Origin: an uncultured archaeon | GTDB taxonomy: Archaea > Thermoproteota > Nitrososphaeria > Nitrososphaerales > Gagatemarchaeaceae | Direction: 5' to 3' | Length of the DNA stretch: 64,000 nt | Assembly: GCA_963799775.1 (NCBI GenBank) | Contig: CAWCYD010000003.1 | Span: 192,001-256,000, forward strand | In this document: positions 41,826-60,563 of the stretch, one piece after another | Layout of the letters: each line of letters opens with the position of its first letter | Numbering within the stretch: position 1 is the first letter of the stretch | The notes under the pieces: model-generated | Seen by the model: the letters and a program-made list of their open reading frames with translations, nothing else | What the model was told of the DNA's origin: nothing | Database searches by the model: none | Program-made: the position numbers and the translations under genes

Positions 41826-42041
41826 GGGGCGACTTTGCGACAGGTCGTTTAGAACTTATGCGTCGACCGTTATGGCGAAGCCAAGGTTAGAAGAGTCGGG
41901 CGTCCGCCACCTTTCTGACCGAGAATTCGTGAATCGAAGAAGTCTTATGAACGCGCCGAACATGCTCCTTCACGACCATTGTCCTCTCACGGGGGACTCG
42001 AAGAAGACGGATTGCGTGCGCGAAACGATGAGTTGGTCAAA

Positions 42042-42155
42042 ATGACCGAGCAGATGCATACTGCTCGATATGGTGGAATCTACTCTAACAGCGGCGGCCA
42101 ACCTTGGTCATACTGGATTTTCTGGGACGGACAAGACTACCGAATCGCCCATTGA
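42042..42155 (+). CDS. Putative trp operon leader peptide MTEQMHTARYGGIYSNSGGQPWSYWIFWDGQDYRIAH
   Basis: 37 codons with 3 Trp, 4 Tyr, 1 Phe, directly upstream of trpE. Confidence 0.7.
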   Translation: MTEQMHTARYGGIYSNSGGQPWSYWIFWDGQDYRIAH

Positions 42156-42216
42156 GGGTCAATTTATCACCCGATGCGGGACAGCCGCGAAAGTCACCCA
42201 AGAACGGGACAATACC

Positions 42217-42234
42217 CATTTATGGGCATAAATG
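42217..42234. promoter_or_regulatory. Palindrome CATTTATG-GG-CATAAATG upstream of trpE
   Basis: Perfect 8-bp inverted repeat beside TATA-like sequence. Confidence 0.55.
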
Positions 42235-42277
42235 ATTATTAGTGTTCATTCCTCGTGCCATCCTGAGCGTAGAATGG

Positions 42278-43716
42278 GTGACCACTTTTGGCAGCGAGCT
42301 CAGACTTGCCCGACAATCGCTGAAAGCTGAAAGGCTGAGGACGACCGATTCTCCCCGAGGGCTCTTCGTCAAGGTCCAGGAAGAGTTCGAGAACGCGTTC
42401 CTTCTAGAGTCTGCCATAGGAGAGCAGAGACTCGCGGAATACTCCTTCATCGGCTTTGGCCCGGGAACGCTCCTGAGTCTCAAGGACGGCCGGATTGATG
42501 CGCGTTCATCCGACGGAAGCAAGGACAGCTTACAGACCGACGAGCCGCTCGAGGACCTCAAGCGACTCCTCTCAATCCCGATCCCTTCAGGTCTGCGAGC
42601 GCGAAGCCCGTTCAGGTTCATCGGGGGCGCCGTCGGCTACATCTCCTATGACTCTGTGCGGTATTGGGAGCGGCTGCCAGTCAAAGCGAAGGATGACCTG
42701 TCGCTCCCCGACATGGAGTTCGGCATCTATACCGATGGGATCGCCTTCGACCACATCGGCAAGACGATCCACTACTATTCGCTGGGCAAAGAGAACCGAC
42801 TAGACCTGGTCCAGCGGTTGCTCCGCGCCAGCCCTCCGGAACGCGAGGGGCTCGAAGCTCGAGGCGTCGCGAGGCCGACGGTGGAAAAACCCAGGTTCGA
42901 GTCGATGGTCGAGGCAGCGAAGAGACAGATCACTGCGGGTGACATCTTCCAGGTCGTCCTCTCCAAGCGCTACGACTTCCAGCTGGAAGGCGACCTCTCC
43001 GTCTTCTACGAGGCGCTGAGCGAGATCAACCCTTCCCCCTACATGTACTTCCTGAAGTTCGGGGACCGTAAGATCGTAGGCTCCAGCCCCGAGATGCTGG
43101 TGAGGGTCGAGAACCGGCAGGTCGAGACCTTCCCAATCGCCGGTACGCGCCCTCATCTCATGGACAAGGCTGAGAACGCGAAGCTCACCAAGGAGATGCT
43201 CGCCGACCCCAAGGAGAAGGCGGAGCACGTGATGCTCGTCGACCTCGCGAGGAACGACGTCGGAAGGGTCGCGAAGTACGGGACGGTCAAGGTCCCCGAG
43301 CTGCTGACCGTCCAGCAGTTCAGCCACGTCCAGCACATCGTCTCGAGGGTGGTCGGGGCACTCAGGCCCGAGTTCAACTCTTTCGACGCGATGCGCGCGA
43401 TGTTCCCCGCCGGGACTGTCTCTGGCGCCCCAAAGCCCCGCGCGATGGAGATCATCGAGGAGATCGAACCGGTCAGGAGGGTCCCTACGCGGGGGCGCTC
43501 GGATACTTCTCGTTCAACGGGAACGCCGACTTTGCCATCACGATCAGGACACTCGTCGCCAGGGGGTCGAAGTGTAGCATCCAGTCAGGAGCCGGGATCG
43601 TCGCGGACTCTGACCCGTCGAAGGAATGGCACGAGACAGAGGCCAAGGCAGCCGGTCTGATGAGGGCGGTCGAGAAGGCGACCGGCAGCAAACTGAGGGG
43701 GGCCTCGGGGAGATGA
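42278..43716 (+). CDS. trpE: Anthranilate synthase component I (indels near 43480-43500; start uncertain)
   Basis: FLLES, GDIFQVVLS, NPSPYM, SSPE, EHVMLVDLARND, FPAGTVSGAPK. Confidence 0.95.
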
Positions 43717-44299
43717 AGGTCCATCGTGATCGACAACTACGACTCGTTCGTCTACAACCTGGCCCAGTACGTCGGTGAGCTCGGCGGGACCCGCACGTCT
43801 TCCGGAACGACAAGATCACTCTCGCCCAGGTGCGCGACATGGCGCCGGACCGCATCATCATCTCTCCCGGTCCCGGTCATCCTGCGGACGCCCGCTACTT
43901 CGGGGTCTGCCAGAAAGGTCCATCCAGGAGGTGAGCCCAGGCGTCCCGACCCTCGGGGTCTGCTTGGGCCATCAGGGCATAGGGACCTCTTTCGGGGCGC
44001 ACGTAAGCGGAGCCTCAAGGCTGATGCACGGCAAGACGAGCAGGATCCTCCACGACGGGCAGGGGGTGCTCAAGGGCGTGAAGAACCCGTTCGAAGCGAC
44101 CCGTTACCATTCTCTTGCGATAAACAAGGACGACATCCCCCCCGAGCTCAAGGTGACGGCCCTATCGATGGACGACGCGGAGATAATGGGGATAAGGCAC
44201 AGGAAGTATCCCATCGAGGGGGTCCAGTTCCACCCCGAGTCGATTATGACTCCCGAGGGCAAGAAGATAATCAGGAACTTCCTGAGAGGGTCGCGATGA
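43713..44299 (+). CDS. trpG: Anthranilate synthase component II (several indels)
   Basis: [36 protein letters not shown]. Confidence 0.93.
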
Positions 44300-45375
44300 C
44301 GCCCGTCCAAGACGCCATCCAGCAGATCTTGGATGGCAGGTGCAACCTCTCAGGCGAGACCATCGCCGCCTGTGTCAAGGACATCGCAGAGGGGGCCGCG
44401 ACGCCCGCCCAGGTAGCGGGGTTCCTGGTGGCCCTGAGGAAGAAGGGAGAGACCGTGGAAGAAATAGCCGCACTCGCCTCGGCTCTGAGGGGTTACAGCA
44501 CGATGAAGGAACGGCCCGTGGTAAAGGGGAGGATGGTGGACACCTGCGGCACCGGCGGCGACACTCTGAAGACCCCGAACGTCAGCACCATGTCCTCGTT
44601 CGTCGCGGCCGGCGCGGGAGCCGTCGTCGCGAAGCACGGTGGCCGCTCTGTCACGAGCAAGTCAGGGAGCGCCGACGTCTTGGAGCGCCTCGGCTTCAAC
44701 CTCGCCATGGAGCCCTCACGCGTCAAGGACTCGATCGAGCAGATAGGCATCGGCTTCATGTTCGCCCCGTCGTTCCACCCCGCGATGAAGCATGTCGCTC
44801 CCGTCAGGAAGGAGCTGGGCGTGAGGACGGTCTTCAACCTGATGGGGCCCCTGATCAACCCGGCGCGCGTCGACGCGCAGCTCGTGGGACTCTACTCGGC
44901 TGCCCTCGTCCCCCAGGTGGCAGCGGTGCTGGGCAGACTGGGCCTCGAGGAGGCGTTTGTCGTCCACGGGATGGAGGGCGTCGACGAGATCTCCGTCACA
45001 GGCAAGACGATGGTCTCACACCTCAAGGGCGGGCGCGTAGAGTCACGCGAGTATCTTCCGAAGGATTTCGGGCTCCGAGACGGGCCCCTCGTGCCCAGGA
45101 CGAGCCCGTCTGATGCCGACGAGGGAGCGATGCTCGCCCTCTCGATCCTGAGCGGAGACTGCAGCGAGCGCGACTATGGGCGACTGATGGTGCTGGCGAA
45201 CAGCGCCGCCTGCCTGGTGCTCGCGGAGAGGGCCGACAGCTTCTCCGAGGGGATAGAGCTCGCCTCCGTTTCCATAAAGAGCGGCAAGGCGATGTCGAAG
45301 CTCGAGGAGCTGGTGAAGTTCAGCGGAGGGAGCCTCGAGGCTGCGAGGGAGAGCTATGCAAAGAAGAAAGACTGA
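44296..45375 (+). CDS. trpD: Anthranilate phosphoribosyltransferase
   Basis: DTCGTGGD, NVST, KHGGRSVTSKSGSAD, RTVFNLMGPL. Confidence 0.96.
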   Translation: MTPVQDAIQQILDGRCNLSGETIAACVKDIAEGAATPAQVAGFLVALRKKGETVEEIAALASALRGYSTMKERPVVKGRMVDTCGTGGDTLKTPNVSTMSSFVAAGAGAVVAKHGGRSVTSKSGSADVLERLGFNLAMEPSRVKDSIEQIGIGFMFAPSFHPAMKHVAPVRKELGVRTVFNLMGPLINPARVDAQLVGLYSAALVPQVAAVLGRLGLEEAFVVHGMEGVDEISVTGKTMVSHLKGGRVESREYLPKDFGLRDGPLVPRTSPSDADEGAMLALSILSGDCSERDYGRLMVLANSAACLVLAERADSFSEGIELASVSIKSGKAMSKLEELVKFSGGSLEAARESYAKKKD

Positions 45376-46190
45376 TGCCAATTTCATCTTCACGCTAGCC
45401 GACACTGCTTCCGAGACCATCGAGAGCGGATACTACGAGGGTCTTGACGCCAAGGCGGCGCGCGGCCTGAAGCACAGGAGCCTCAAGGCTTCGCTGGCGA
45501 CGTCGAAGCTGACGCCGGTCATCGCCGAGATTAAATTCACCTCCCCCGCCGAGGGCGAGCTGAGGAAACCTGGCGACGTCAGGAAGATCGCCCGGGCCTA
45601 CGAGCGCGGGGGGGTCTCTGGAATCTCCGTCCTGACGGAGCCGAGACACTTCGACGGTGACATCCGCTACCTCCCCCTGGTCAAGAAGTCCGTCAAAGTG
45701 CCGGTGCTGATGAAAGACATCGTCATCGACCCCGTGCAGGTCGATGCGGGCGCCAAGATGGGCGCGGACGCCATTCTCTTCATCGCGGCAATATTCATGA
45801 ATAGGCTCGCAAGGGCAGGCCTCGGAGAGATGCTCAATCTTGCCAAGAGCCGGGGTCTCGAGGTCCCTGATGGAGGCACACACAGAGAACGAGTTCATGT
45901 ACGCCCTCGAGTCCGGGGCGGACGTCGTGGGGATAAACAACAGGGACTTGGACACGCTGGATGTGTCGCTCTCGACATCGAAGAGGCTCCTCGCCGTGGC
46001 ACGGCAAGGGAAGGCGCGAGAAGGGATAAGCAAGGACAAGCTCGTCATCTCTGAGAGCGGCATCACGACGAGAGAGGAGATCCTCCAACTGAGCGAGCTA
46101 GGGGCTGACGGGTTCCTCATAGGGAGCGCTCTCATGAAATCCGGGGACATCGAGGAGAAGGTCAGGTCGCTCACGGGAGCAGCGGATTGA
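45356..46190 (+). CDS. trpC: Indole-3-glycerol phosphate synthase (indel near 45865)
   Basis: IAEIKFTSP, SVLTEP, GINNRDL, ISESGI, LIGSALM. Confidence 0.95.
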
Positions 46191-46861
46191 CCCGCGTGAA
46201 GATATGCGGCATCACCCGCGAGGAGGACGTCGATGCTGTCGTCGACGCCGGCGCGGACGCCCTCGGGTTCGTCTCAGGCTTCCCCAACTCTCCCAGAAAC
46301 CTCACGGTCTCAAGGGCGGCCTCGCTCATCTCGAGGGCCCCACCCTTCGTCACGCCGGTCCTTGTGGCGACCGCCCAGACGCTCGTGGAGCACTCTGACG
46401 AGATCAAGAGGTGTGCCCCGAAGGCGATACAACTCTACGGGAACGCGTTCTCTCAGGCGTCCATCAGGCCCTCTTTCCACGCGTACCTGCTGCGGCCCTG
46501 CGCTGTCGCCCACGACGTGGGTGACGAAGGCCTCGCGGCGCTAGAGAAGATCAAGGAGACGGTCAAGGGTTACGACGCCATCCTCACGGACGCCCACCGC
46601 GAAGGCTACGACGGCGGGACCGGCCTGACGTCTGACTGGAACTTCTGCTCCGCGATAAGGAAGAGCATCGCGCCGATGCCCCTGATCCTCTCCGGAGGTC
46701 TGAGGCCCGAGAACGTCGAGCTTGCGATAGCGACAGTCTCGCCCTTCTGCGTCGACGTCTCGTCCGGGGTGGAGTCTGCGCCAGGCGTCAAGGACCACTC
46801 GAAGGTCAAGACCTTCGTCACCAACGCCAACAAGGCTGAAGAGAGGCGGGTGGCTCCATGA
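46187..46861 (+). CDS. trpF: Phosphoribosylanthranilate isomerase
   Basis: [31 protein letters not shown]. Confidence 0.95.
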
Positions 46862-46862
46862 C

Positions 46863-48086
46863 ATGACCTCGCGGAAGAGCAGCAAGGGCGAGAAGAACAA
46901 GTCCAAAGACTATCCGACCAACGGGAAGTTCGGGGGCTTCGGAGGGCAGTTCGTCCCCGAGACGCTTGTCCCGGCGGTCCAGGAGCTCGAGAAGGCGTAC
47001 CTTTCCGCACGCAAGGACAAGGCGTTCCAGGCCGAGCTCAGCAGGCTTCTGCGAGACTACGCCGGCAGGCCGACGCCCCTCTACCTCTGTGCCAACCTCA
47101 CGACGCACGCGGGCGCGGCGAGGATATTCCTCAAGAGGGAAGACCTCCTTCACGGGGGTGCCCATAAGATCAACAACACGCTCGGGCAGGCGCTGCTAGC
47201 CAAGAAGATGGGCAAGCAGAGGATAATAGCAGAGACGGGGGCCGGCCAGCACGGCGTCGCGACGGCGATGGCCTGCGCAGCGCTCGGCCTCAAGGCCGAG
47301 ATCTACATGGGGTCCGAGGACGTGGAGAGACAGAAGCTCAACGTCTACAGGATGAAGCTCCTCGGAGCCCAGGTGCACCCCGTCGAGAGCGGGTCCAAGA
47401 CGCTCAAGGACGCCATCAACGAGGCTCTCAGGGACTGGGTGACGAACGTGGGTTCCACCTACTACCTCCTGGGCTCGGTCGTGGGCCCTCATCCCTACCC
47501 GGTCATGGTCAGAGACTTCCAAAGCGTCATAGGAGACGAGGTCAAGGCAGAGTTCAAGAAGACAGGGAAAGGCCTTCCAGATGCGATCGTCGCCTGCGTC
47601 GGGGGCGGGAGCAACGCGATGGGGAGCTTCCACGCCTTCGAGGGTGACCCGAAGGTGAAGCTCTATGGCGTCGAGGCCGGCGGGATGGGGGCGGGGAGGA
47701 ACGCGGCACCCCTCATCGAAGGGAGAAAAGGCGTCCTCCATGGCATGATGACATACGTCCTCCAGGACGAGCACGGCCAAGTCCGCGGCACAGAGAGCAT
47801 CTCGGCGGGCCTCGACTACCCGGGAGTGGGCCCTGAGCACTCCTTCCTGAAGGAGACCGGGAGGGCCACCTATGTCTCAGTGACCGACGACGAAGCCGTC
47901 GGAGCCTTCCACCTCCTCTCCGAAAAGGAGGGGATCATCCCCGCGCTCGAGTCGGCCCACGCGGTCGCATACGCGGTGAAGCTGGCTGGAAGGATGGGCA
48001 AGACCCAGTCGGTTGTCGTCACGCTCTCAGGTAGGGGTGACAAGGACGTGCAGCAGGTCGCGAGAAGAGAGGGCACGGAGCTCTGA
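46863..48086 (+). CDS. trpB: Tryptophan synthase beta chain (TrpB1)
   Basis: [47 protein letters not shown]. Confidence 0.97.
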
Positions 48087-48902
48087 GCCCCATCTCCTCG
48101 GTCTTCGCCAAGCTCTCAGGAGAGGCAGCCCTCGTGGCCTACGTCATGGGAGGCGACCCCGACCTGGCGGCGTCTGCCCACGTGATCGACGCGGTGATCC
48201 GCGGGGGCGCTGACATCGTGGAGGTTGGCCTACCGTTCTCCGACCCGATCGCGGACGGCAAGTCGATACAGGCCGCAGATGTCCGAGCCCTGTCGTCAGG
48301 CTCCACCCCGGCAAAGGTCATGAGCGTCATCTCGAGCGTCAAGGCGCGTCATCCGGAGGTGCACCATCGTCGCCATGACGTACTACAACATACTCTACTC
48401 CAACGGCGTCGAGAAGTTCCTGCTGCAGGCGAAGAGCGGCGGAGTCGACGGGATGATCGTCCCCGACCTGCCTTTGGAGGAGGTCGCAGACTACCATCGG
48501 ATCGCAAGGTCGCTTGGACTGGATACGATACTCTTGGCGGCCCCTACCACTCCTCCAGAGAGGATGCGGAGGATCGTCGAGCAGACGTCGGGATTCCTAT
48601 ACCTTGTCTCACTCATGGGCGTTACGGGGGCGCGCCCAGGGGTCGAGGAGAGCAGCCTCGAGCTGGTCAAGAACGCGAAGAAGTTCGCAAAGGAAAGGAA
48701 CGTCCCCCTCGGCGTGGGTTTCGGCATATCGACGCCAGACCAGGTCCGGGCCATGGTCGAAGCTGGCGCTGACGCCGTGATAGTCGGAAGCGGAATCGTG
48801 GACAAGGTCGCGGGCTACGACTCTGCCGGGAGCTCGGTCTCGCTCGTGAAGATCGCCGAATACGTGCGAGCGCTGAAGGAAGCTACCAGAAAGAAGAGCT
48901 AA
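48083..48902 (+). CDS. trpA: Tryptophan synthase alpha chain (probable CTG start; indel near 48360)
   Basis: [34 protein letters not shown]. Confidence 0.95.
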
Positions 48903-48914
48903 ACAGATAACTCG

Positions 48915-49776
48915 TCAACGAGCGCTGTAGACTTCCCTTATCGCCGCCTTGCCCTTCCTGCCAGAGGCGTAGGTCTTCGCGAGCCTCCCGAACTCCGTCC
49001 TGAACGCGTCCCAGTCGGACCCTTCCACGACCTCGATGGCTCTCCTGAGCTCACGCAGGGCCTCTCTTCCGACCTTCCTGGTGTAGCCGTTCGAGGCCTG
49101 TATGGCGAACGAGAGCCGCGGGTCTTGGGCAAGGATCGCCTCCGCCAGCGTCATCTGCATGGAGGAGTTCGGCGTCGAGATCCTGTCGAACTCATCCGGC
49201 GAGAGGAACTTTGCCATCGTCCCCGCGTACACCAGGTTCAGCAGGTGCGTGAGAGAGAGCACGGCTGCCATCGCCTGGTCGTGCTCCTTCCTCGTCATCG
49301 GGATTATCCGCGCACCGGGGAACAGCCTCTTTGCGAGCGAGGCCTCAGTACCAGGCCTTCCTCCCTCCTTCTTCACTATGACGGCTAGCTTCATCCCGTC
49401 CGCGGACTCGAGCGCAGGGCCGAAGAGAGGATGTATGGACAGCAGAGAGACCCTCTCCCCCGCCAATTTCCTGAGAGCCGGCAAGGTCTCCCCCTTGACG
49501 GACATGATATCGATCAGGGTAGACCCTCGCTTCATCTTGGGGACGGCCTCCTCTGCCACCTTCAAGGTGCTCTCGATGGGGACTGCCATCAGGACGAGGT
49601 CGCAGCCTCTCACGGCCTCAGAGTTCGAGGCGGCGCTCTTGACGTGTACACCTCGGGGCGACTGCCTCCTCGCCTTTCTCGAATCGAACCCGCGCACCGT
49701 GTCTCCTTTCTCGATGAAGTACCTCGCGAAGAAGGGCACCCATCCCGCCCCCTGCTCCGAGGACGGCGACCTTCAA
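48915..49776 (-). CDS. tyrA: Prephenate/arogenate dehydrogenase (indel near 49740)
   Basis: KVAVLGAGGGMG, DIMSVK, SIHPLFGP, HDQAMA..LSLTH. Confidence 0.9.
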
Positions 49777-52309: not shown

Positions 52310-52310
52310 G

Positions 52311-53650
52311 CTAGTCGCTGCTCACCCTAGCCCCGAGCTTCTTGAGGTCTTCCAGGAACGTCGGATACGAGACGTCGAGGCTCTCGACACCGACGATCGG
52401 GGTCCTCCCGGGATCAGCATCGACGCCAGTGAGAAGGCCATGAACATCCTGTGGTCGTCGTGCGCGTCGAGGGCGGCCGGTTCGAGCTTCCCTCTGACGG
52501 GCGCTATCCTCAGTCCGTCGGGCCTCTCCTTCACGCTCGCTCCAAGCTTCGAGAGCTCCTTCGCGACTATCGCGATTCTGTCGGTCTCCTTGAACCTGGC
52601 GTGTGCCGTCCCCACCACCTCCACGGGCGTGTCGCACCTCAGAGCCAGCGCCGCGACGACCGGGAGAAGGTCCGGGGTGTCCCCGAGGTCGAATGACCCG
52701 CCCAGCAGGGTGTCGCCGTCCGAGGAGACGACCAGGCCGTCCTTCTCTTGGGTCACGTTCGCTCCCATCTTCTTGACTATCTCAGTTATCCGAGCGTCTC
52801 CCTGAGGCAGGCTGGCGTCGAGGTTCTCGATTCTCACCCTTCCTCCTATCATCGCGACCGCCGCGATGATGAAGGACGCCGAGCTAAAGTCCGCGGGCAC
52901 GGTGAAGTCCGCGCTCCTGTATTCTTGGCCGGATCTGACCTCGAACTCCGCGTACCCCTTGTTCGAGGCCTTCACTCCAAAGTGCGCCGCGAGCCTCAGC
53001 GTCATCTCGATGTAAGGCCTTGAGACGGCGTCCGCGACCTTGAGCGTCGTGTCTATCTCCGCCATGGGGCTCGAGATGAGGAGCGACGAGACGAACTGCG
53101 AAGAGACGTCCCCCCGGATGGACGCCCTCCCACCTCGCATCCCTCCTGACTTGATTATCACGGGGGCGCACCCGTTCCCCCTGGAGCTCCATCCCTGGAC
53201 CCCAAGCTGCCCTAGGGTGTCCAGGAGGGGCTGCATCGGCCTCCTCCTTATGCTAGAGTCCCCGGTGAGGACGACGAAGCCTTCTGGGGCGAGCGAGAAC
53301 GCGGAGGTCATGAACCTGAGCGTCGTCCCCGAGTTCTCGACGTTGACGACGTCGTCGGGGACCATCGGCTTCGTGCCCTTGATGACTAGCATCCCTTGTC
53401 GCCTCTCCATCTCTGCCCCCATCGCGGCGCAGGCGGACACGGTGGCGTTGGTGTCTCGGGAGAGCAGCGGGTTTCGTATCTTCGAACTTCCCGCCCTCCC
53501 CGCGGACTGCGCCAGGCTCGCGATGAGCACGGCTCTGTGCGTGTAGCTCTTGCTCGGCGGCACCGAGACGCTCCCGCTCAACTTCCCCGCCGCGAGGGCC
53601 CTCGTCGCGTGGACGGAGGCAGCCCTAGCCAACAGAGAGCAGCCTCCCAT
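52311..53650 (-). CDS. aroA: EPSP synthase (indel near 52400)
   Basis: PPSKSYTHR, NSGTT, RPM, SSQFVS, KETDR, DHR, SYPTF. Confidence 0.95.
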
Positions 53651-54517
53651 GCTCGTTGTTTGTCTCCGTCTCGATCACCGTGCTCCCGTCGCTCTGCCAA
53701 TCTTTCTTGAGGGCCTCCATCTCGGCCTGCCTGGAGGCGTCGAAGACCGCGGCCACCGCCGGCCCGGTCCCCGAGAGCCCCGCCCCCAGCGCGCCGTGTT
53801 CCACAGCGCGGAGCGCAGGAGAGGGGTCGTACTTCAGTATCGACGAATACGTCATCCCGTTCAAGACCATCGCCCTCCAGTAGTCGCCCTTAAGCGTCAT
53901 CTCGAAGAAAAGGTCGGTGAGGAGCCCGAACTTCCTGATGAGCTGGGGCTCGACGCTCTCTCGCCTGCTCTTCGTCCTTGGGATGACGACAAGCACTCTG
54001 AGCTTCTTGTCGAACAGCCTCGAGCTGACCACCTTGCGTGCGAGGTTGTCGGTCATGTTCAGGCCTCCGAGAAGGCAGCCTGAGGCGTCGTCCAGCGCCC
54101 CGGTGATGCTGGCCCCGCTGGCGAGCGAGGCTTGGACGCTGCAGTCGAGGGCCCTCTTGGGGTCGAAGGCCTTCTGCCCGAGGGCGGCGAAGACCGCGAT
54201 GGAGATGGCGGTCGAGGCGGCCGAAGAGGTCTTCAGGCCCACGCCTATGGGCACAGAGGACACAGTCCTCACATTCCCGCTGAAGCCGCCTGGTCCTTCC
54301 CGCTCATCTTTATCGCCAGTCTCACCGTCTCCAATGCGAGGGCCGAGCCGGTCCTCTTGCCGTTGACGCTGACCGACCACTGACCGGGAGAGTCTTCGAG
54401 CTCGACCTCTGCCTCGGTCGGAAGCCTGACGCTCGCCGTCGCTCCCTTGCCGCTAGCTATCGCGTTGACTATGCTTATCGCGCCGAAGGTCGTCGCCTTC
54501 GCCTTCACCACTGTCAC
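53625..54517 (-). CDS. aroK: Archaeal GHMP-type shikimate kinase (indel near 54310)
   Basis: GAISIVNAIASGKG, PIGVGLKTSSA, SITGALDDA, GLSGTGP. Confidence 0.93.
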
Positions 54518-55390
54518 TTGCTCTTTCGGCCCCCTTTCTTCCGACTCGGAGACTGCCCGCCCTTTAGCGCGGCCACAAGCGCTTCCCTCATCTCGCTCTC
54601 GGGGGCCCCCCTTCCCGTCCAGAGCTTGAAGGCAGCCATCCCTTGGTGCAAGAGCATGTCCTCGCCATGTATGACCTTCGCGCCCGACCGGCGGGCCTCC
54701 ACAAGCAGGCCGGTCTCCTTGGGACGGTAGACGGCGTCGAACACGACCTCGCTTCCCGGAACGATCCGCTTCGCCCCGGAGGGGAGGGCAGCCCCGTCTG
54801 CCCCCATGGGCGAGGCGTTGAATATCAGGTCATGGTTGAGATGATGGAGGTCGCCTCATCGAGGCCAGGGTGAGGTTGAGGCGCGGGAAAGCCTTCTCCA
54901 TGTCCTGCACGAACGACCTCGCGCGCTCGGGGTCGCGGACTGCCACGCCCACGTCGACTATCCCGAGCCTGTTCATGGCCTCGCAGAACGCTCGCGCTGC
55001 ACCGCCCGCCCCTATCAGGAGCGCGTTCCTGACGTAGATGGAGGCAAGCAGCCCGCGGAGCGGCTCCACGATCCCGTCCGGGTCCGTATTGTGCCCGGAG
55101 TACCTCCCGTCCTCCTCGAGCTTCACAGTGTTGACAGCTTGTATCCTCGTCGCGACGGCGTCGAGCTCGTCCAGGAACCGGAGCACGGCCGCCTTGAACG
55201 GGATGGTGACGTTCATCCCCTTGAAGCGGATCGAGATGAGGCGGCGGAACTCCCTCGGGAACGCCTGCTCTGGAACGCTCACCTGCGAGTACTCGGCGTC
55301 GATCGCCAGGGCCTTGAACGCGGCGTTCATCATGGCCGGCGAGGGCGAGCGAGACACGTCCCTCCCCACGATGCAGTAGCGGTCGGTCAT
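54514..55390 (-). CDS. aroE: Shikimate dehydrogenase (indel near 54840)
   Basis: SPSPAM, NVTIPFK, AVNT, NTD..G, GAGGAAR, DAVY.P. Confidence 0.93.
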
Positions 55391-56087
55391 CCCGCTTCGT
55401 TGGGGACCAGGCCCCTGAACTCAATCATGGTGGAAATCGAGAGCTGGCCAGGCGCGACCGCATCGTTGGGGAGAGCGGCGTAGGCGATTGGAGCCTGCAT
55501 GAACATGGAGAGCAGTCGCGACGAGGCACCCTCCTCGCCCATGCAGAACGCCGTCACCTTCCCCGGGTTCTCCTCGCAGAGCCTCAGTGCGCTGACGTTG
55601 TCCTCGAGCTTTGTTGCCGTCGTCACCACCTTCGCTATCGCCCCGTATTGCAGCTCGTCTTTGCAGCTTCTCCTCAGCTCGCTCAGCGGAGGTGCCCCTT
55701 GAAGTCGTGCCACGAGACGATCCTCTCCACCTTGTTCGGCAGGCTCTTCAGCCACCTCTCGTTGTCGACCGCGGTCCTGAGCTCCACGTCCAGGTAGGCG
55801 GGGAGCATAGTGGCAAGCTCCGAGATCAGGCTCAGGCGCTCGATGTCGCTCCCAGAGAACGCCCCTCCTTCTTGGTTGGTCCTTACGGTCACGACGGAAC
55901 GCGGCGCGAACTTCGCCAGCTTTGTCTTGATGTCCTCAGGCGTCACCCTGCTCATGATGCGGTCTATCCGGAACTCCACCAGGTCCGCGCCTAGATGGAA
56001 CGCATACTCCGTCTTCTGGACCATCTCATCGAGAGAGTCTGCGCTTATCGATGCGCATATCTTGGGCATGACTCGCTTGTTGGCCAT
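55387..56087 (-). CDS. aroD: Type I 3-dehydroquinate dehydratase (indel near 55695)
   Basis: EFRID, TVR...EGG, SWHDF, AKV, FCMG, APGQ. Confidence 0.92.
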
Positions 56088-56103
56088 CCATCTCTCACTT
56101 GGG

Positions 56104-57120
56104 TCAGCGCTCCAAGATGAACTCGTCTACCTCTCCGCCAAAGTGCCTGGCCTTGCCGTGGGCTGCGACGTGGACGAGTATCTCGTCGCCCGCCTTTGCC
56201 TCGGTGACCGCCACGGGCCTGCCGTCCGGCCTCACGAGGCGGATGGTCTCTGCGTTCTGGATCATGGCCGTGCCTTCGTGCCCATCGCACTCCGCGACCA
56301 CCATCACCAAGGGCCTCCTCTCCATCTTTATCCTCCCGACTGTCGCCTCGCGCCTCTTGCCCGCAAAGTCGACGAGCTGGACCTTGTCCCCGGCCTCCAG
56401 CTCAGAGAGGTATCTCGTCTTCCCGTCCGCTCCCAGGATGTAGCTGTGCAGCGCGCCCGCGTTGACCCTGAACGGCCTCGTGGGTATGTACTCGGTGGGG
56501 ATCGTCTCGCTGTGGACGAGGAAGAAGAAGCTGGCCTTGCTCCCTATGAGCATGCCCTCGCCCAGGGAGAGCTGAGATGCGGTGTCGATGCAGACCCTCT
56601 CCCCGTCACCCACGTCCACGATCCGCTTGACCCTGGCCTTTACGAGCTTGAGCTGGTCGCCGTCGACGTTGGCCATAAGTCTCTTGACGGCCGCCAAGGA
56701 CGAGTAGGGCACCACGACGCCGTCGACCCCCTTCTCGAGGATGGAGAACGCCAACCTGATGTCGCTCTCGCTCTTCATGAATGCGTAGATCTTCCTGTGC
56801 TTCCTCCTGAACTCTCCGATGAGGTTCTCAAGAGGTATGATCTTCCAGTTTGTGCAGTCCACCACGACGAACTTGTGGTCATGCTTCAGGGCTGACTCGA
56901 CCGCCCTGTCCAGGTCCTTGGCGCCCTTGACCTCTATCCACGCAAAGTCCCCTTCTTTCTCCTTGTACTCGCGCATTCCCGACCCCGACGCGGCGCCCAG
57001 AGGCCTCGCGCTCCTGTTGATGACTGCGTTGATGCCGGCCCCCTTGGCCTCCTTCAGAGCTTTCGAGAGGTCTTTTGCTTCCGTGAGGTCGAGGATAATC
57101 TCTTTCTCAGGCTGGAGCAG
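56104..57120 (-). CDS. aroB': 3-dehydroquinate synthase II (probable CTG start at 57120)
   Basis: WKIIPLENLI, ERVCIDT, RPFRVNAG, QNAETIRLV, ARHFG. Confidence 0.95.
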   Translation of the reverse strand: MLQPEKEIILDLTEAKDLSKALKEAKGAGINAVINRSARPLGAASGSGMREYKEKEGDFAWIEVKGAKDLDRAVESALKHDHKFVVVDCTNWKIIPLENLIGEFRRKHRKIYAFMKSESDIRLAFSILEKGVDGVVVPYSSLAAVKRLMANVDGDQLKLVKARVKRIVDVGDGERVCIDTASQLSLGEGMLIGSKASFFFLVHSETIPTEYIPTRPFRVNAGALHSYILGADGKTRYLSELEAGDKVQLVDFAGKRREATVGRIKMERRPLVMVVAECDGHEGTAMIQNAETIRLVRPDGRPVAVTEAKAGDEILVHVAAHGKARHFGGEVDEFILER

Positions 57121-57900
57121 CGCCCATTACCTCCATCGCCTCTTCCACGCTGCCTCCGTCGATCACCACCCGCCTGATCGCCCTGACGATGAGGGTCGGG
57201 TCGCGGTGCTGGAATACGTTCCTCCCGAACGTGACGCCTGCGGCCCCTGCCTCCATGACGTCGCTGGCTAGCTTGAGGATCTCAAGGTCGTTCTCTACCT
57301 TCGCCCCTCCCGCGAGGACGACCGGGACAAGGCACTTCCTCACGACTTCCCTGAAGGTCTCCGGGCTCCCTGTGTAGACCGTCTTGACGATGTCCGCCCC
57401 CGACTCGGCCCCGACCCTCGCCACGTGCGCCACCACCTGCGGGTCCGTGGGTCCTTGATGTTCTCGCCCCTGGGGTACATCATCGCGATCAGCGGGACCT
57501 GGTACTCGTCGCACTCGTCCGCGACCAAGCCGAGCTGTTGGAGCATCTCCGGCTCCTCTTTGGAGCCCATGTTGATGTGGACCGAGATCGCGTCCGCACC
57601 GAGCCTCAATCCCTCCACTACCGAGGAACTGACCATCTTCCTGTTCGGCGCAGGGCTTAGGTTGGTGCTCGAGGAGATGTGCATGATCATCCCGATTGGG
57701 GCTGGCTTCCTCATCGCCTTGATCACTCCCTTGTGGACGAGGAAGGCCGTCGCGCCGCCCTTCGCCACCTTCGCGATCATCTCCTCAGGGCCCTCGAGAC
57801 CTGCGATGGGTCCGACTGTGAAGGAGTGGTCCATGGGGATGCAGAGCATCCTTCCGCCCTTCGTTATCCTGTTGATCCTCACCTGCTTCCCGAACACCAT
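57107..57900 (-). CDS. aroA': 2-amino-3,7-dideoxy-D-threo-hept-6-ulosonate (ADH) synthase (indel near 57450)
   Basis: IPMDH, AMMYPRG, GADIVKT, AGG, GRNVFQ; adjacent to DHQ synthase II. Confidence 0.9.
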
Positions 57901-57907
57901 GTCTCCA

Positions 57908-58982
57908 TTACCTCCCCAGGTATCCCTCTCTTTCCATGAGCTCCGCTGTAAGTATTGCCGTCCCGGCCGCTCCACGGATCGTGTTGTGGGAGAGAAGGGT
58001 GAGCTGCAGCGACCTCTCGTCTATCCCGTTCCTGACCCGGCCGACGACGACGCTCATGCCGGGCACGCTCCCCGCCAGCCTGTCGAGGCGCGGCTGGGGC
58101 CTGTCGTTCTCCTTCCTTACGATGATCGGCTGCTGGGGCGCCGTCGGGAGCTTCAGCTTCTGGGGCTCGCCCTTGAACCTCTCCAGAGCCCTCTCGGCAG
58201 ACTTTGGCGAGATCCTCCCCGGGAACTCCGCATAGAGGGTCTCCATGTGCCCGTCGATGACCGCGACCCGGTTGCAGGAGATGCCCATTCTTATCGGGCT
58301 AGGCTTGATCGCGCCGCCGACGAGCTTGCCAAGGATCTTCTTCGCCTCGGCGGCCACCTTCTCCTCCTCGTTCTTGATGTAGGGTATGACGTTCTCCTGT
58401 ATCGCGAGCGAGGGGACTCCCGGATATCCGGCACCTGAGAGGGCCTGCATCGTCGTGACGATGGCCTTCTCGGCGCCGAACTCGTCGATTAGGGGCTTGA
58501 GCACCATGGAGAGGCCCGTGCCCGTGCAGTTCGGCGTCGTCGCTATGGCGCCCTTCCACCCCCTCTTGTTCTTCTGGGACTTTAGAAGGCCCAGGTGCTC
58601 GGCGTTTATCTCGGGTATCATCAGAGGCACGTCTGGGTCCATCCGGTGGGCGCTCGCCTCGCTCACGACCGTGAATCCTGCCTCGGCGAACTTCGACTCG
58701 ACCTCAGCTGCGACCTCCGAAGGCAGCGCAGAGAAGACGACGTCGCATCCCCTCGCGGACTCCGGTCTGGCACGCTGTACGACCTTCGCGGCCATCTCCT
58801 CGTCCATCTCGTCAGGGAACAGCCAGTGCACGGCCTCCCCGTACTTCTTGCCCGCTGACTCGCCTCCCATCAGGCACCTCCAGCCTCAGGTAGGGGTGCC
58901 TGGGGAGCATGTTGATGTAGCGCTGCCCTACTGCGCCCGTCGCGCCCAGCAGGGCGGCCTTGACCTCTCTACGCTTGCTCAT
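57908..58982 (-). CDS. asd: Aspartate-semialdehyde dehydrogenase (indel near 58880)
   Basis: LGATGAVGQ, PEIN, PNC, QALSGAGYPG, HNTIRGAAG. Confidence 0.95.
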
Positions 58983-60226
58983 CGTGATTGCATCCTTCCT
59001 GGGGCTTGCGGCTCGCTCGCCATCGCCTCCGTCACCAGGCTGTAGGCCCTTTCCGAGTCGTCGTTTGAGACGAAGACCCTGACGGACGAGAGGATCGTCA
59101 CTATGCCGTAGACGTTGATGCCCGTCTTTGCGAGAGGAGTGGTGATCCTCTGGACCACACCGCGCTCCGTCTCGAGCGCCGCCCCCTTGACGGTGATCAT
59201 GGAGAGGTGGGGGAACTCGGAGACGGCCTTGCCTATCTTCTCCTCTATGAGCACATGGTGAACGCTGTCCAGCACGTTCTCGCCCCCGCCCACGTAGAAG
59301 ATGGCCGCGCTCGTCTCGAGCGAGAGGGCCAGCAGGTCGCCTCGAGCCTCTCTCACCGCAGCGACCGCTCGCATGATCGAGTCGGTCTTGGCCGGATTGA
59401 GGCCGACGAGGGTGATCATCGAGACCCCTCCTCGTACGATCTCCACCTGGGCGGGCGAGAGCTCACCCTTGATGACAGTCCCGGAGTCGAGCTTCTCGAG
59501 GCTCGTGACCCTGATCCGGAGTCCGGATGATTGGTATCTGAGGGCCTTTACGTGGAGGAACTTTGCCCCGCCCGCCGCGAGCATCTCAGCTTCCTCGCCG
59601 TTCAGACTCTCGATGAACTGCGGGTTGGTGACCTTGTCGGGGTCGCTCGAGTAGACCCCTTCCACGTCCTTGACCAGTATGACCTCCTTCGCATCCAAGC
59701 AGTTGCCGAGCAGCACGGCCGTCGTGTCGCTCCCTCCTCTGCCCAATGTCGTCGTCTTTCCGCGGATCGTCTTCCCCAGGAAGCCGCAGACGACAGGCAC
59801 GCGTCCCGCCGCCAAAAGAGGCATAATCAGCTGCTGGGCCTTCGCCCTGCTCTCCGCCACGAGCGGGTTCGCGTCTAGATGCTTCTCGTCCGTGATGACG
59901 GGCCAGTACGGAGTATCGGGGTCGACGACGACCGACTGGAGGCCGAACGACGCGAGGGCCGCCGCGACGAGTCTGGCGCTCGTCTTCTCTCCGGACGAGA
60001 GCAGCTCGTCGAGCAGATGGGGCTCGATGCCCGGGTTCTCCTTCTTCGAGAGGGACATTATCTGATCTGTGACGCCCTTCATCGCGGAGACGACCGCGAC
60101 CACCCCGAGCCCCTTGCTCTTCGTCTCTTTGATCAGGGAAGCCACTTGGTTGATGGCCTTCTCGTTCTCGAGAACCGATCCGCCGAACTTGACGACGACG
60201 GTCTCAATCATCTTAGTTGTGCTCAT
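58979..60226 (-). CDS. lysC: Aspartate kinase
   Basis: KFGGSV, VVSAM, TLGRGGSDTTA, DVEGVYSSDP; ACT-like C-terminus. Confidence 0.94.
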   Translation of the reverse strand: MSTTKMIETVVVKFGGSVLENEKAINQVASLIKETKSKGLGVVAVVSAMKGVTDQIMSLSKKENPGIEPHLLDELLSSGEKTSARLVAAALASFGLQSVVVDPDTPYWPVITDEKHLDANPLVAESRAKAQQLIMPLLAAGRVPVVCGFLGKTIRGKTTTLGRGGSDTTAVLLGNCLDAKEVILVKDVEGVYSSDPDKVTNPQFIESLNGEEAEMLAAGGAKFLHVKALRYQSSGLRIRVTSLEKLDSGTVIKGELSPAQVEIVRGGVSMITLVGLNPAKTDSIMRAVAAVREARGDLLALSLETSAAIFYVGGGENVLDSVHHVLIEEKIGKAVSEFPHLSMITVKGAALETERGVVQRITTPLAKTGINVYGIVTILSSVRVFVSNDDSERAYSLVTEAMASEPQAPGRMQSR

Positions 60227-60274
60227 GGTGCAAGACGCTCCAGCTGATTTTCGCGTAGGAAACTAGAGCGCGAG

Positions 60275-60349
60275 CTAGTAGCGAAAACCGAAGATGGGCT
60301 TCCAATAACCGAGGTTCCCATAAACTGAACCGCCTCTGTGGAGCTCCAT
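60275..60349 (-). CDS. Putative aro operon leader peptide MELHRGGSVYGNLGYWKPIFGFRY
   Basis: 24 codons with 3 Tyr, 2 Phe, 1 Trp; ATAAATA box at 60382-60388; stop 48 nt before lysC. Confidence 0.72.
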   Translation of the reverse strand: MELHRGGSVYGNLGYWKPIFGFRY

Positions 60350-60563
60350 CTCTTCTTCACTCTCTGGCGCTCGAGAATCGATATTTATGCATTGCTGAGT
60401 TGGAACGGCGCCTTTCCCCTGGCCCACAGGGCATCGCACTGGTTCTCTGGTCTGTCTACCTGGCCGAAAGATTCTTTCGAGAAAAATCATAAACATCACT
60501 TCCGACATATTAAATAGAGGAGGTCGGGGCACCGAAAAATCCTCAGGGTAGGGTACTGGTCGT

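Follow-up and report, generated by a model that had tools for sequence, protein, structure and literature searches.

Introduction

Bacterial prfB, the gene for release factor 2, carries an autoregulatory +1 frameshift site in which an SD-like AGGGGG is followed, after 3 nt, by CUU UGA C. A hungry A-site codon, a slippery P-site 'CUU U' and an upstream Shine-Dalgarno (SD)-like sequence are described as stimulators of +1 frameshifting (PMC2377451). Frameshifting at hungry codons is reported to be induced by starvation in E. coli and to occur at Trp codons in Trp-depleted human cells, and these accounts treat such cases as errors or stress by-products (PMC5009743, PMC8211752, PMC13751296). In the attenuation leader pheL of E. 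coli, frameshifting is described as apparently incidental (PMC3082878). Coupled termination and reinitiation where a stop codon overlaps a start codon (ATGA) is described in archaea (PMC6728339, PMC10666635). Here, we compare with these systems two operons for aromatic amino acid synthesis in the genome of an uncultured archaeon.

Results

Two convergent operons

The window, that is, the whole 64,000-nucleotide stretch of DNA that was analysed, contains a trp operon and an ask-asd-aro operon on opposite strands. A sequence-only reading of this DNA had placed small ORFs at the outer ends of the two operons, where they are indeed present, and had the operons converge with a 12-bp gap, which is the distance between their last ORFs (ending at 48902 and 48915). 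The genes, assigned by Pfam domains, are:

42278..43660, plus strand: trpE, anthranilate synthase I (Anth_synt_I_N and Chorismate_bind), its C-terminal part out of frame in the assembly
43726..48902, plus strand: the rest of the trp operon, namely trpD (with a probable trpG part), trpC, trpF, trpB and trpA, several of them split by frame breaks
48915..58870, minus strand: asd, aroA' (DeoC-type), aroB' (DHQS II), aroD, aroE, GHMP shikimate kinase, aroA, aroC, a chorismate mutase-aminotransferase fusion and tyrA
58979..60226, minus strand: ask, aspartate kinase (AA_kinase and ACT), first gene of the aro operon, with orthologues in the same position in relatives

A mini-ORF across the trpE start

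The start of trpE is overlapped by a second reading frame with the following features:

42227..42242, plus strand: TATA-like region of trpE, CATAAATGATTATTAG (coordinates from the sequence), kept in relatives
42274..42330, plus strand: 0-frame mini-ORF of 18 codons, MGDHFWQRAQTCPTIAES and stop (MGDHFW...), overlapping the trpE start
42276..42281, plus strand: SD-like element of sequence GGGTGA, which complements the 16S 3' tail and precedes the slip codon by 4 nt
42286..42291, plus strand: slip site TTT-T and Trp codon (0 frame, TTT TGG; +1 frame, T TTT GGC)

The mini-ORF ATG (42274) begins 4 nt before the trpE-frame GTG (42278), and trpE is read in the frame +1 to that of the mini-ORF. The cassette [AT]TG-GGT-GRN-NNN-NTT-TGG, with trpE in its +1 frame, is present in 52 of the 70 sampled trpE loci, the same loci from which the definition was derived, and in all 23 loci of the amoA-carrying family (ammonia-oxidising archaea). 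The start codon is located exactly at -4 in 49 of the 52 loci and, in the other 3, in frame slightly further upstream. The 0-frame peptides range from 6 to 32 aa across relatives, with a variable tail of 0-26 residues beyond the W; in locus L059, the peptide is just MGGHLW. The trpE genes that lack the cassette (L051, L060, L167-L171) encode unrelated N-termini without F-G, so TTT-GG is not a requirement of the TrpE protein.

The last 8 bases of the TATA-like region (42235-42242) end 31 nt before the ATG, and the element lies at the same distance from the mini-ORF in relatives; it is presumably part of the promoter. All 23 loci of the amoA family have a TTAAATA-type box whose end lies 21-24 nt (22 nt in 14 of them) ahead of the 0-frame ATG. 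Archaeal transcripts begin at this spacing from the box, and therefore the 0-frame AUG is the predicted 5' end of a leaderless mRNA. TGTACA boxes are found upstream of the trpE TATA element in relatives, suggesting additional regulation of trpE by a protein.

The aro leader and a start-less +1 frame

The region upstream of ask contains:

60379..60390, minus strand: TATA-like box GCATAAATATCG for transcription of the aro leader, conserved in the genus
60275..60349, minus strand: aro leader, 0-frame ORF MELHRGGSVYGNLGYWKPIFGFRY and stop (ATG at 60349)
60320..60337, minus strand: aro cassette AGAGGCGGTTCAGTTTAT, with SD-like GAGGCGGUUC, slip codon GTT then T, and Tyr codon TAT
60235..60271, minus strand: hairpin GCGCUCUAG...CUGGAGCGU, in which the ask Shine-Dalgarno GGAG is paired
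60223..60321, minus strand: +1-frame ORF of 32 codons, from the slip site to a TGA overlapping the ask ATG (ATGA)

The aro leader (60349-60275) is real: a matching mini-ORF precedes ask in 29/29 loci that hold the ask 5' end (30 were fetched and one, L010, is cut), which cover the genus (20 loci, with the window among them) and 9 further families. The CATAAATA part of the TATA-like box ends 32 nt before the leader ATG, consistent with a promoter. Downstream of the 0-frame start, the cassette G[AG]GGCG[AG]T-NNN-NTT-T is present in all 29 loci, followed by TAY in 27 and by TTY in 2.

The prediction for the +1 frame was set from the trp loci and then examined at the aro loci. In 9/9 lineage representatives, the distance of the first +1 stop from the ask start is between -15 and +20 nt; the same stop window is hit by the 0 frame in 0/9 and by the +2 frame in 2/9 lineages. 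The chance of a +1 stop near the ask start is 0.02-0.20 per lineage, with a product of about 7e-10. In 23/29 loci, the +1 stop and the ask start codon share bases (as ATGA, GTGA, TTGA or TAATG); the stop lies 11-16 nt beyond that codon in L013, L022 and L030, and 7 nt (L026) or 13 nt (L027) before it, and in L024 the +1 ORF is fused in frame to ask. In 26/29 loci, the stretch from the nearest stop upstream down to the slip site contains no start codon, so that the +1 ORF has no entry of its own, and in 10/29 the +1 ORF has none downstream of the slip site; in the window, there is a +1-frame GTG at 60360. L027 has a TGA within the cassette, with no start codon nearby, and in L028 two registers fit, of which the one with an ATG start puts the +1 stop 27 nt before ask. 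The untidy loci (L013, L022, L026, L027, L028 and L030) and the GTG of the window count against a frameshift.

One cassette, two pathways

The trp and aro cassettes share the same order of elements: a complement of the 16S 3' end, three bases, NUU then U, and a codon for the pathway product. The A-site codon follows the pathway, being UGG in 52/52 trp and UAY or UUY in 29/29 aro cassettes. The 16S rRNA of the source genome ends in GGAUCACCUCCU, and the tail GGAUCACCUCC is present in 7/7 genomes. The mean duplex energy is -11.7 kcal/mol for the 29 aro cassettes and -9.0 for the 52 trp cassettes, compared to a background of -4.4 +/- 2.4 (n=1943 in-frame NTT-T sites). For the window, the predicted energies are -12.5 kcal/mol (aro; 0.4% of the background as low) and -11.4 kcal/mol (trp GGGTGA; 1.0% as low). 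The raw locus counts overstate independence because the genomes are related.

Several features place the constraint on the RNA rather than on the peptide, with the shared non-aromatic residues behaving as an RNA signal. NTT precedes the aromatic codon in 81/81 cassettes, and TTT-GG is invariant in the 52 trp cassettes; TTT accounts for 13% of the Phe codons in the genome (TTC, 87%), where TTT, CTT and GTT are all rare. The Gly codon is GGC in 28/29 aro and GGT in 52/52 trp cassettes, and the next codon is G-R-N, encoding D, E or G, with a purine at cassette position 10 in 52/52 trp cassettes. Two features count against a frameshift: re-pairing of GUU or AUU on UUU leaves the first position mismatched, and the SD spacing, measured from the CCUCC core, is closer to that of an initiation complex than to that of prfB.

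The notion of an undescribed archaeal leader family survives in part: conserved mini-ORFs head the aromatic operons, and our literature search found no description of such a family, but the trp member is 42274-42330, and the motif shared by the trp and aro leaders is the cassette of this mini-ORF. The suggestion that the leaders conserve more than aromatic codons holds, with aro orthologues keeping RGGS[VL]Y and KPIFGFRY.

A putative frameshift switch

The cassettes probably constitute a hungry-codon +1 frameshift switch at the head of both aromatic operons, a reading that draws support from the presence of all three known +1 stimulators. Both operons would thus have a prfB-like recoding cassette that senses an amino acid, located in roughly the first dozen codons past the promoter. 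The ribosome would initiate at whichever start codon comes first in the mRNA (ATG 42274 for trp, ATG 60349 for aro), and the 16S-complementary stretch just behind the slip site (GGGUGA or GAGGCGGUUC) would pair with the ribosome. With an ample supply of charged tRNA-Trp (or tRNA-Tyr/Phe), the pathway codon would be decoded and a useless 18- or 24-residue peptide completed up to its stop, leaving the enzyme genes poorly translated. A shortage of the charged tRNA would make the waiting ribosome slip +1 on UU-U. For trp, the frame entered is trpE itself. For aro, it is the ORF that lacks its own start codon in most relatives; the shifted ribosome would traverse the SD-sequestering hairpin and terminate at the TGA on the ask ATG, and ask would be turned on through unmasking combined with termination-reinitiation. 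What the sequences show is the anatomy of the cassettes, their conservation, the relations between the frames, the 16S complementarity and the match of codon to pathway; slippage, its response to starvation and the control of expression are inferred.

Alternative explanations

Classical leader-peptide sensing, with no recoding, is an unlikely alternative. Ribosomes stalled where the aro leader has aromatic codons (Y10 and, later, the C-terminal FGFRY) would keep the post-stop hairpin open and free the ask Shine-Dalgarno sequence, as in ermC or trpL, and the open +1 frame would be incidental. Leaders in the genus keep FGF[RKSY][YF] right before the stop, and the GGAG-pairing hairpin, predicted by folding the sequence singly and by RNAalifold on 10 close relatives, among which informative changes are few, begins 3 nt past the leader stop and may be regulatory. 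Frameshifting alone needs neither feature, which counts against the switch. In addition, four Bathyarchaeia ask loci combine F/Y-rich leaders (for example, MRFFSFGYYFYYYFR and stop), directly followed by a GCCCAG...CTGGGC hairpin, with a closed +1 frame. However, stalling leaves unexplained the start-less +1 ORFs that end on the ask start in all nine lineages, the NTT conserved in both cassettes and the 16S complementarity. The trp mini-ORFs have a single W, one of them ending right after it; outside the genus, 30-87 nt separate the end of the aro 0-frame ORF from ask, and no structure is shared among these loci; and no U-run terminator was found between the aro leader and ask in the window. 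Classical sensing and frameshifting could coexist in the genus.

Because a GUG in the trpE frame is retained inside the SD-like element in 52/52 trp cassettes, trpE could simply initiate there (42278). The upstream AUG would then open only a decoy mini-ORF or be unused, and the W codon would be a by-product of Phe-Gly at the TrpE N-terminus. In favour of this reading, the base that varies in NTT falls on a synonymous third position when trpE is read. Initiation at the GUG seems improbable given the start codon that is fixed at -4, or in frame slightly upstream, in every trp cassette, the cassette-free TrpE N-termini without F-G and the use of TTT in 52/52 loci, where the source genome has TTC for 87% of its Phe codons. 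Furthermore, it is at the AUG that the leaderless mRNA is predicted to begin, and the aro cassette, with its start-less +1 frame, has GGCG and no GUG.

The sequence-only reading had assigned the role of trp leader to a different ORF:

42042..42155, plus strand: W-rich ORF (PWSYWIFW), MTEQMHTARYGGIYSNSGGQPWSYWIFWDGQDYRIAH

Homology of this ORF to the aro leader (60349-60275), with a common nascent-peptide arrest motif, now appears very improbable. The similarity exceeds controls: the proposed pattern GG-x(1,2)-Y-x-N-x-G...YW...IF matches both ORFs and 0 others among the 10,729 small ATG ORFs of the genome, only 44 of which have 3 W in 7 residues, and the local alignment score of 43 is reached by 0/5000 random small ORFs, 0.6% of composition-preserving shuffles (p about 0.006) and 1.5% of 135 aromatic-rich ORFs. 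Yet the ORF was chosen after the fact out of the whole window, lacks an NTT-T cassette, shows no DNA similarity to the aro leader region and is located upstream of the TATA region kept by relatives. No counterpart was found 5' of trpE in 29 relatives, nothing in the protein collection matches it and its own genome lacks a paralogue; the sole DNA match in 22 genus genomes is a 23-base stretch in one of them (E 0.002). We therefore reject it as part of a conserved system and consider it lineage-specific, its DNA being unique to this genome. Its description as Trp-dominated was overstated (3 W, 4 Y, 1 F), and the N and W of the motif are not kept in aro orthologues, where YGN becomes YPH, YLS or YPQ, and YW becomes YQ, YR, YG or HK. 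TnaC-like arrest is unlikely as well because only 5 residues in trp (49/52 loci) and 5-10 in aro have been made when the regulatory codon enters the A site. The original observation is thus confirmed in part, and its interpretation partly supported.

A DNA operator or promoter-proximal element for a common aromatic regulator, with incidental small ORFs, would fit the position of the conserved bases roughly 10-50 bp past the predicted transcription start, where repressors can bind, and the TGTACA boxes of relatives, but is extremely improbable, as it leaves unaccounted for the start codons in frame, the use of UGG in one pathway and UAY in the other, the start-less +1 ORFs ending on ask and the 16S tail match.

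Discussion

The closest parallel is prfB, with which the archaeal cassettes share an SD-like hexamer, 3 nt, NUU then U and a slowly decoded A-site codon, and would share the logic whereby a shortage of what reads this codon causes a shift and more of the reader is made (general features as described in PMC2377451). Unlike in prfB, an aminoacyl-tRNA decodes the A-site codon, a sense codon, and therefore an amino acid would be sensed. The cassettes also differ from prfB in their archaeal host, in their position only 5-10 codons from the 5' end and in the shifted aro frame, which has no useful product and would serve only to bring the ribosome to the start of the next gene; for these cassettes, frameshifting is a proposal made from sequence.

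As in bacterial attenuation (trpL, pheL, hisL), a 5' short ORF contains codons for the product, and the ribosome would sense charged tRNA; in contrast to attenuation, the trp mini-ORF has one regulatory codon rather than a run, a search for a terminator/antiterminator pair at the archaeal leaders found none, and the proposed read-out is a change of frame. Slipping when the A-site aminoacyl-tRNA is scarce would be shared with the hungry-codon cases described in E. coli and human cells (PMC5009743, PMC8211752, PMC13751296), but the archaeal site is conserved, paired with stimulators and wired to the cognate pathway. The aro +1 ORF ends in a TGA on the ask ATG, as in the archaeal ATGA coupling described previously (PMC6728339, PMC10666635), except that the upstream partner is not a gene but a frame reachable only by shifting. 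TnaC and other arrest leaders likewise are small upstream ORFs that respond to an aromatic amino acid; unlike TnaC, the archaeal cassettes are conserved at the nucleotide level, with a nascent chain of 5-10 residues at the critical codon and no arrest motif supported.

If the frameshift switch operates as proposed, it would represent a type of control that has not been described for amino acid synthesis, whereby the starved ribosome itself turns the pathway on.

Convergent aromatic operons and their upstream small ORFs

As a sequence-only reading of this DNA had described, the trp and aro operons of the window converge with 12 bp between them, and both small ORFs that it named as aromatic leader peptides are present. 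The features on which the analysis turns are:

42042-42155, + strand: small ORF named as the trp leader in the sequence-only reading
42274, + strand: ATG of a second trp mini-ORF, which overlaps the trpE start
42278-48902, + strand: trp operon, from trpE to the end of trpA (Pfam)
60226-48915, - strand: aro operon (Pfam)
60349-60275, - strand: aro leader, ahead of ask (aspartate kinase)

According to Pfam, the aro operon encodes ask, aspartate-semialdehyde dehydrogenase (asd), a DeoC-type aldolase, dehydroquinate synthase II, aroD, aroE, a GHMP kinase, aroA, aroC, a chorismate mutase-aminotransferase fusion and tyrA. The archaeal route to dehydroquinate runs via aspartate-semialdehyde, and the position of ask and asd at the head of the operon fits this route. 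Frame breaks interrupt or shorten many genes in the two operons (window 43400-57975), affecting the trpE C-terminus, trpA (48134-48772 + 48375-48902), aroD (55683-56087 + 55387-55755) and the DeoC aldolase (57340-57975 + 57107-57514) and leaving trpC, aroB' and aroE partial. The window covers 192001-256000 of contig C3 of this genome (G000). Given that the assembly (2.47 Mb, 82% complete) consists of three contigs, these breaks look like indel errors rather than pseudogenes. ARAGORN found 14 tRNAs in G000, with intron-bearing genes probably missed. Archaeal amoA is present in relatives of the same order (3/3 sampled genomes of family f12 and 1/1 of family f15) and has no match in G000, which assigns the window to a relative of the ammonia-oxidising archaea that does not nitrify.

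The likeness between the two small ORFs is above chance within the window: the motif that they had been said to share matches these two alone among 10,729 small ORFs, and their alignment score of 43 was reached by 0/5000 random small ORFs and by 0.6% of shuffles. The trp ORF at 42042-42155, however, lacks a counterpart in relatives. It is not upstream of trpE in 29 of them, has no paralogue within its own genome and no relative in the protein collection searched (near lengths only), and a comparison with the DNA of 22 genomes of the genus yielded nothing but one 23-base match (E 0.002) in one genome. It is placed in about 300 bases of extra DNA that extend from a GNAT gene to the trpE promoter region conserved in relatives, and is probably a lineage-specific sequence with a putative function at most; its Trp cluster, a property of 44 of the 10,729 small ORFs, leaves it a small chance. 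Thus, the aro half of the original observation was confirmed and the trp half was not.

The aro leader in relatives

The ask start regions of 41 genomes yielded 30 loci, one of which is cut at the 5' end, and the aro leader occupies the same place in every informative locus. The leader contains 6 aromatic residues in 24, and its orthologues contain 4-6.

Conserved residues of the aro leader
Close group: M.L.RGGS[VL]Y..L.Y.KPIFGFRY
Second group of the genus: ..RGGSVY...FGF[SKY]F
Nine other families: M[RK]GDx[LVF][YF]...

In the window, the leader frame is open upstream to an ATG at 60643 (-), forming a 122-aa ORF (60275-60643) that overlaps the start of a divergent glycosyltransferase gene (60564). 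We rejected this ORF as a gene because relatives close the frame 15-123 nt upstream of the leader core described below (183 nt in one case). The aro operon of five genomes (L192-L196, three of which were shown to carry amoA) has no ask, no leader and no such core, and is headed by the aldolase gene (aroA'), about 25-30 nt past a TTTTTAAATAGG-type box. Thus, the core with its Tyr codon goes with ask-led operons only. Two ask upstream regions deviate: in L027 (genome G034), TGA occupies the codon before the slip codon and there is no nearby 0-frame start, whereas in L028 (genome G026) the core fits two registers, with an ATG in one only; these may be decayed or re-wired versions. RNAalifold on 10 close relatives pairs the leader start region (GAGAAAAGAUGAGGCUUC, window 60330-60365 (-)) with the stretch coding for KPIFGF (60290-60310 (-)), which would put the core inside a large hairpin; the sequence of the window itself fits less well.

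A shared cassette constrained at the RNA level

The same 41 genomes yielded 30 trpE loci, one of them cut. Across trpE loci, the conserved element is a start codon that precedes the trpE-frame GTG by 4 nt and opens a mini-ORF of the form M-G-[DEG]-x-[LFVI]-W; in the window, it starts at ATG 42274 and reads MGDHFWQRAQTCPTIAES up to its stop codon. Its DNA, ATG GGT GAC CAC TTT TGG, is built like the core of the aro leader, AGA GGC GGT TCA GTT TAT, and the pattern common to the two consists of GGYGRY, three bases, NTT followed by T, and an aromatic codon (TGG in trp, TAY or TTY in aro). We refer to this pattern as the cassette and to its NTT as the slip codon.

In 81/81 cassettes (29 aro and 52 trp), the aromatic codon is preceded by NTT and supplies the T that follows it. 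The slip codon is CTT in 24, TTT in 13, ATT in 9 and GTT in 6 of the trp cassettes, and GTT in 16, CTT in 12 and TTT in one of the aro cassettes; it can thus encode Leu, Val, Phe or Ile. Three of these codons, TTT, CTT and GTT, are rare in G000 (TTT makes up 13% of Phe codons). The Gly codon is GGC in 28/29 aro cassettes and GGT in 52/52 trp cassettes, and the codon that follows it is G-purine-N (Asp, Glu or Gly). The invariant NTT, the fixed Gly codons and the G-purine-N codon indicate constraint on the RNA rather than on the peptide. The trp mini-ORF contains only one W, to which the copy in the window adds one F, and the 0-frame peptide past this W ranges from none (MGGHLW and a stop, in L059) to 26 residues.

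Rfam covariance models, with E up to 1, had no match in 41800-42400 or 60150-60600. A strict cassette scan of the whole of G000 gave 124 sites, 8 of them past the context filters and only trpE convincing; a loose scan gave 406 sites, 15 past the filters, with only trpE and aro convincing. The other sites past the loose filter were rejected, lying within long ORFs or at the 3' ends of genes. Sister cassettes for other amino acids were not found in G000 with either pattern, and no leader was found in the region upstream of pheA. One site outside the window, at G000:C3:1426587 (+), comprises a mini-ORF (MRAFGGNV and a stop) with GGGGGA-AAT-GTT-TAA, an arrangement like that of prfB, stop codon included; its +1 frame is 14 codons long, and the TGA that closes it overlaps the start codon (ATG) of a 159-aa Lrp/AsnC-type regulator. 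As one of the 15 sites past the loose filter, it could be a chance occurrence.

The +1 frame leads to the next gene

The frame one base forward of the trp mini-ORF is that of trpE, which suggested a slip on TTT-T while TGG waits; this possibility was then tested on the aro cassettes. In the window, the +1 frame is open for 32 codons from GTT-T, past the leader stop at 60275, and closes with a TGA that overlaps the ask ATG (60226-60223). Such an overlap between +1 stop and ask start codon occurs in 23/29 loci (L018 and L019 assigned by inspection, L028 in the register of the search pattern). Among the others, L024 is an in-frame fusion to ask, the +1 ORF ends 7 and 13 nt before the ask start in L026 and L027, respectively, and it ends 11-16 nt beyond that start in L013, L022 and L030. 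With one representative for each of 9 lineages, and with L024 (too short) and L028 (ambiguous) omitted, the first +1 stop falls -15 to +20 nt from the ask start in 9/9 lineages, compared with 0/9 for the 0 frame and 2/9 for the +2 frame; the chance per lineage, from dinucleotide shuffles, is 0.02-0.20, and the product is 7e-10.

The aro +1 ORF has no start codon between the upstream stop and the slip site in 26/29 loci, and none downstream of the slip site in 10/29; the aro 0-frame start is often ATGA or TTGA, which closes the +1 frame by itself. An open frame that lacks its own start and finishes at that of the next gene is hard to explain without ribosome entry from the 0 frame. In all 52 trp cassettes, a GUG in the trpE frame is embedded, and where trp has GGTG, the aro cassettes always have GGCG; GTG at this place would give the aro +1 ORF a start, and the GGCG appears to fit a requirement that ribosomes not initiate directly in that frame.

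Predicted stimulators and comparison with prfB

The 3' tail of the 16S rRNA is GGAUCACCUCCU, and the 16S rRNA of G000 and of six relatives ends in GGAUCACCUCC. Bases complementary to this tail lie a little 5' of the slip codon: GGGUGA in trp, GAGGCGGUUC in the aro leader of the window and GAGGCGAUC in other families. The predicted duplex energies in the window are -11.4 kcal/mol for trp and -12.5 kcal/mol for aro, and the means are -9.0 over the 52 trp cassettes and -11.7 over the 29 aro cassettes, compared with -4.4 +/- 2.4 for the background, 1943 in-frame NTT-T sites of long ORFs, where values as low as those of the window occur at 1.0% (trp) and 0.4% (aro) of the sites. PMC2377451 attributes the promotion of +1 frameshifting at the RF2 site to three features: the A-site codon is hungry, the P site holds the slippery CUU U, and an SD-like sequence lies upstream. 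Both cassette types resemble the prfB +1 site in the slippery NTT-T and the predicted SD-like stimulator complementary to 16S rRNA, and the aro cassettes resemble it also in leading to a frame reachable only by a +1 shift. In contrast, the A site holds a stop codon in prfB, whereas in the cassettes it holds a sense codon (UGG, UAY or UUY), so that the cassette is a variant and not a strict member of the prfB-type sites. A slip mechanism would suit the aromatic pathways because the U on which it depends is the first base of UGG, UAY and UUY alike.

Distribution and the predicted mRNA 5' end

A class-wide search for trpE gave a match in 110/151 genomes, from which 40 trpE start regions, one or two per genus, were added to the 30 order-level loci for a total of 70. 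The trp cassette with an open +1 frame is present in 52/70. The remaining 18 are the cut locus (L039), one with a cassette and a broken frame (L044), L038, L051, L060 and 13 class-level loci, mostly with trpE behind another coding region. In L038, from a genome of the genus (G013), one T of the slip site is lost, the SD-like bases are changed and a TTG in the trpE frame stands at the former slip site, which looks like a natural escape from, or loss of, the putative switch.

In the family that carries amoA, the cassette is present in 23/23 loci from 16 genera. The 0-frame ATG of these loci follows the end of a TTAAATA-type box by 21-24 nt, and by 22 nt in 14 of them. Archaeal transcripts begin about 21-24 nt from the TATA box. 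This spacing predicts that the 0-frame AUG is the 5' end of a leaderless mRNA, which argues that ribosomes start there and not at the GUG at +5. In the window, both mini-ORFs start 31-32 nt past a TATA-like box, which predicts a leader of about 8-10 nt; nothing usable on mapped transcription starts for these archaea was found in the literature. In L033, L037, L040, L041 and L043, the trpE TATA box has a TGTACA box about 20-25 nt to its 5' side, and a degenerate version (CAATACCCA) lies at about 42205-42215 in the window; the box is reminiscent of the methanogen TrpY operator.

A candidate recoding switch and the classical alternative

The anatomy of the cassette and its conservation are direct observations; slippage, the response to starvation and the effect on expression are inferred. 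The likeliest mechanism, to which we attach somewhat better than even confidence, is a prfB-like recoding switch that would sense aromatic aminoacyl-tRNA. With charged Trp-tRNA (or Tyr/Phe-tRNA) ample, the mini-ORF would be read through to its end; with the charged tRNA scarce, the ribosome would shift one base forward. In trp, the shifted ribosome would make TrpE directly, and in aro it would reach the ask start, open the hairpin that pairs the ask GGAG and reinitiate at ATGA. For archaea, coupling between genes that overlap at ATGA has been described (PMC6728339). An undescribed archaeal leader family, as the sequence-only reading had envisaged, is supported in altered form.

The main weaknesses of this switch are the trpE-frame GUG kept in every trp cassette, the untidy aro loci (the TGA within the cassette of L027, the two registers of L028 and five non-overlapping stops) and the imperfect re-pairing of GUU and AUU on UUU. 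The strongest alternative, which might also act in addition to the slip, is classical stalling at the leader C-terminus, to which two features point in the genus: an FGFRY-type C-terminal end is conserved ahead of a hairpin, and by folding this hairpin, between leader and ask, sequesters the ask SD. The aro leader is a short 5' ORF rich in codons of the pathway, as in a transcription attenuator of the trpL type; however, folding shows no U-run terminator between leader and ask, and in trp there is no room for a terminator/antiterminator switch because the mini-ORF overlaps trpE. Nascent-peptide arrest, also raised previously, is unlikely because too few residues are made.

Leaders of the classical kind seem to exist alone in four Bathyarchaeia ask loci (L070, L071, L072 and L075), the useful ones from an ask alignment search with distant kinases among the matches listed. 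These F/Y-rich leaders lie about 60-150 nt upstream of ask and read, each up to its stop, MRFFSFGYYFYYYFR, ...SFDYYFYYYHFP, ...SFDYGFYYFGYFP and ...CFAYQFFYFYQ; a GCCCAG...CTGGGC hairpin with a U-rich loop is directly 3', and the +1 frame is closed.

Implications

A literature search in which subscription journals were thinly covered found no description of leader-peptide or recoding control of archaeal amino-acid synthesis, which leaves absence unproven. On archaeal recoding, the accessible parts of PMC5009743 and of the 2021 review PMC8211752 mention no more than one -1 case (fucA1) besides viral or magnesium-chelatase candidates, and they treat hungry-codon shifting as incidental. The cassette switch would put a familiar type of device to a new use in a domain of life new to it. 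If true, it would add a third coupling of amino-acid supply to biosynthesis to those by attenuation/T-box systems and by repressors, and would be the first +1 recoding with a regulatory role in a cellular gene of archaea. An RNA of about 20 nt would then sense an amino acid without a protein or a structured riboswitch, a compact design for synthetic amino-acid sensors.

Whether an amino-acid-sensing +1 switch is ancestral in Nitrososphaeria seems to us evenly balanced. Under such a scenario, trpE would be Trp-gated and leaderless in ammonia oxidisers, with anthranilate synthase made only on a slip of the ribosome waiting for Trp-tRNA at codon 6, and among relatives that do not nitrify, a sister cassette bearing a Tyr codon would gate the whole ask-led shikimate pathway by bringing ribosomes to the ask start. 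If the switch is real, the annotated trpE start would change in ammonia-oxidising archaea, which are cultured and in which the prediction is directly testable.
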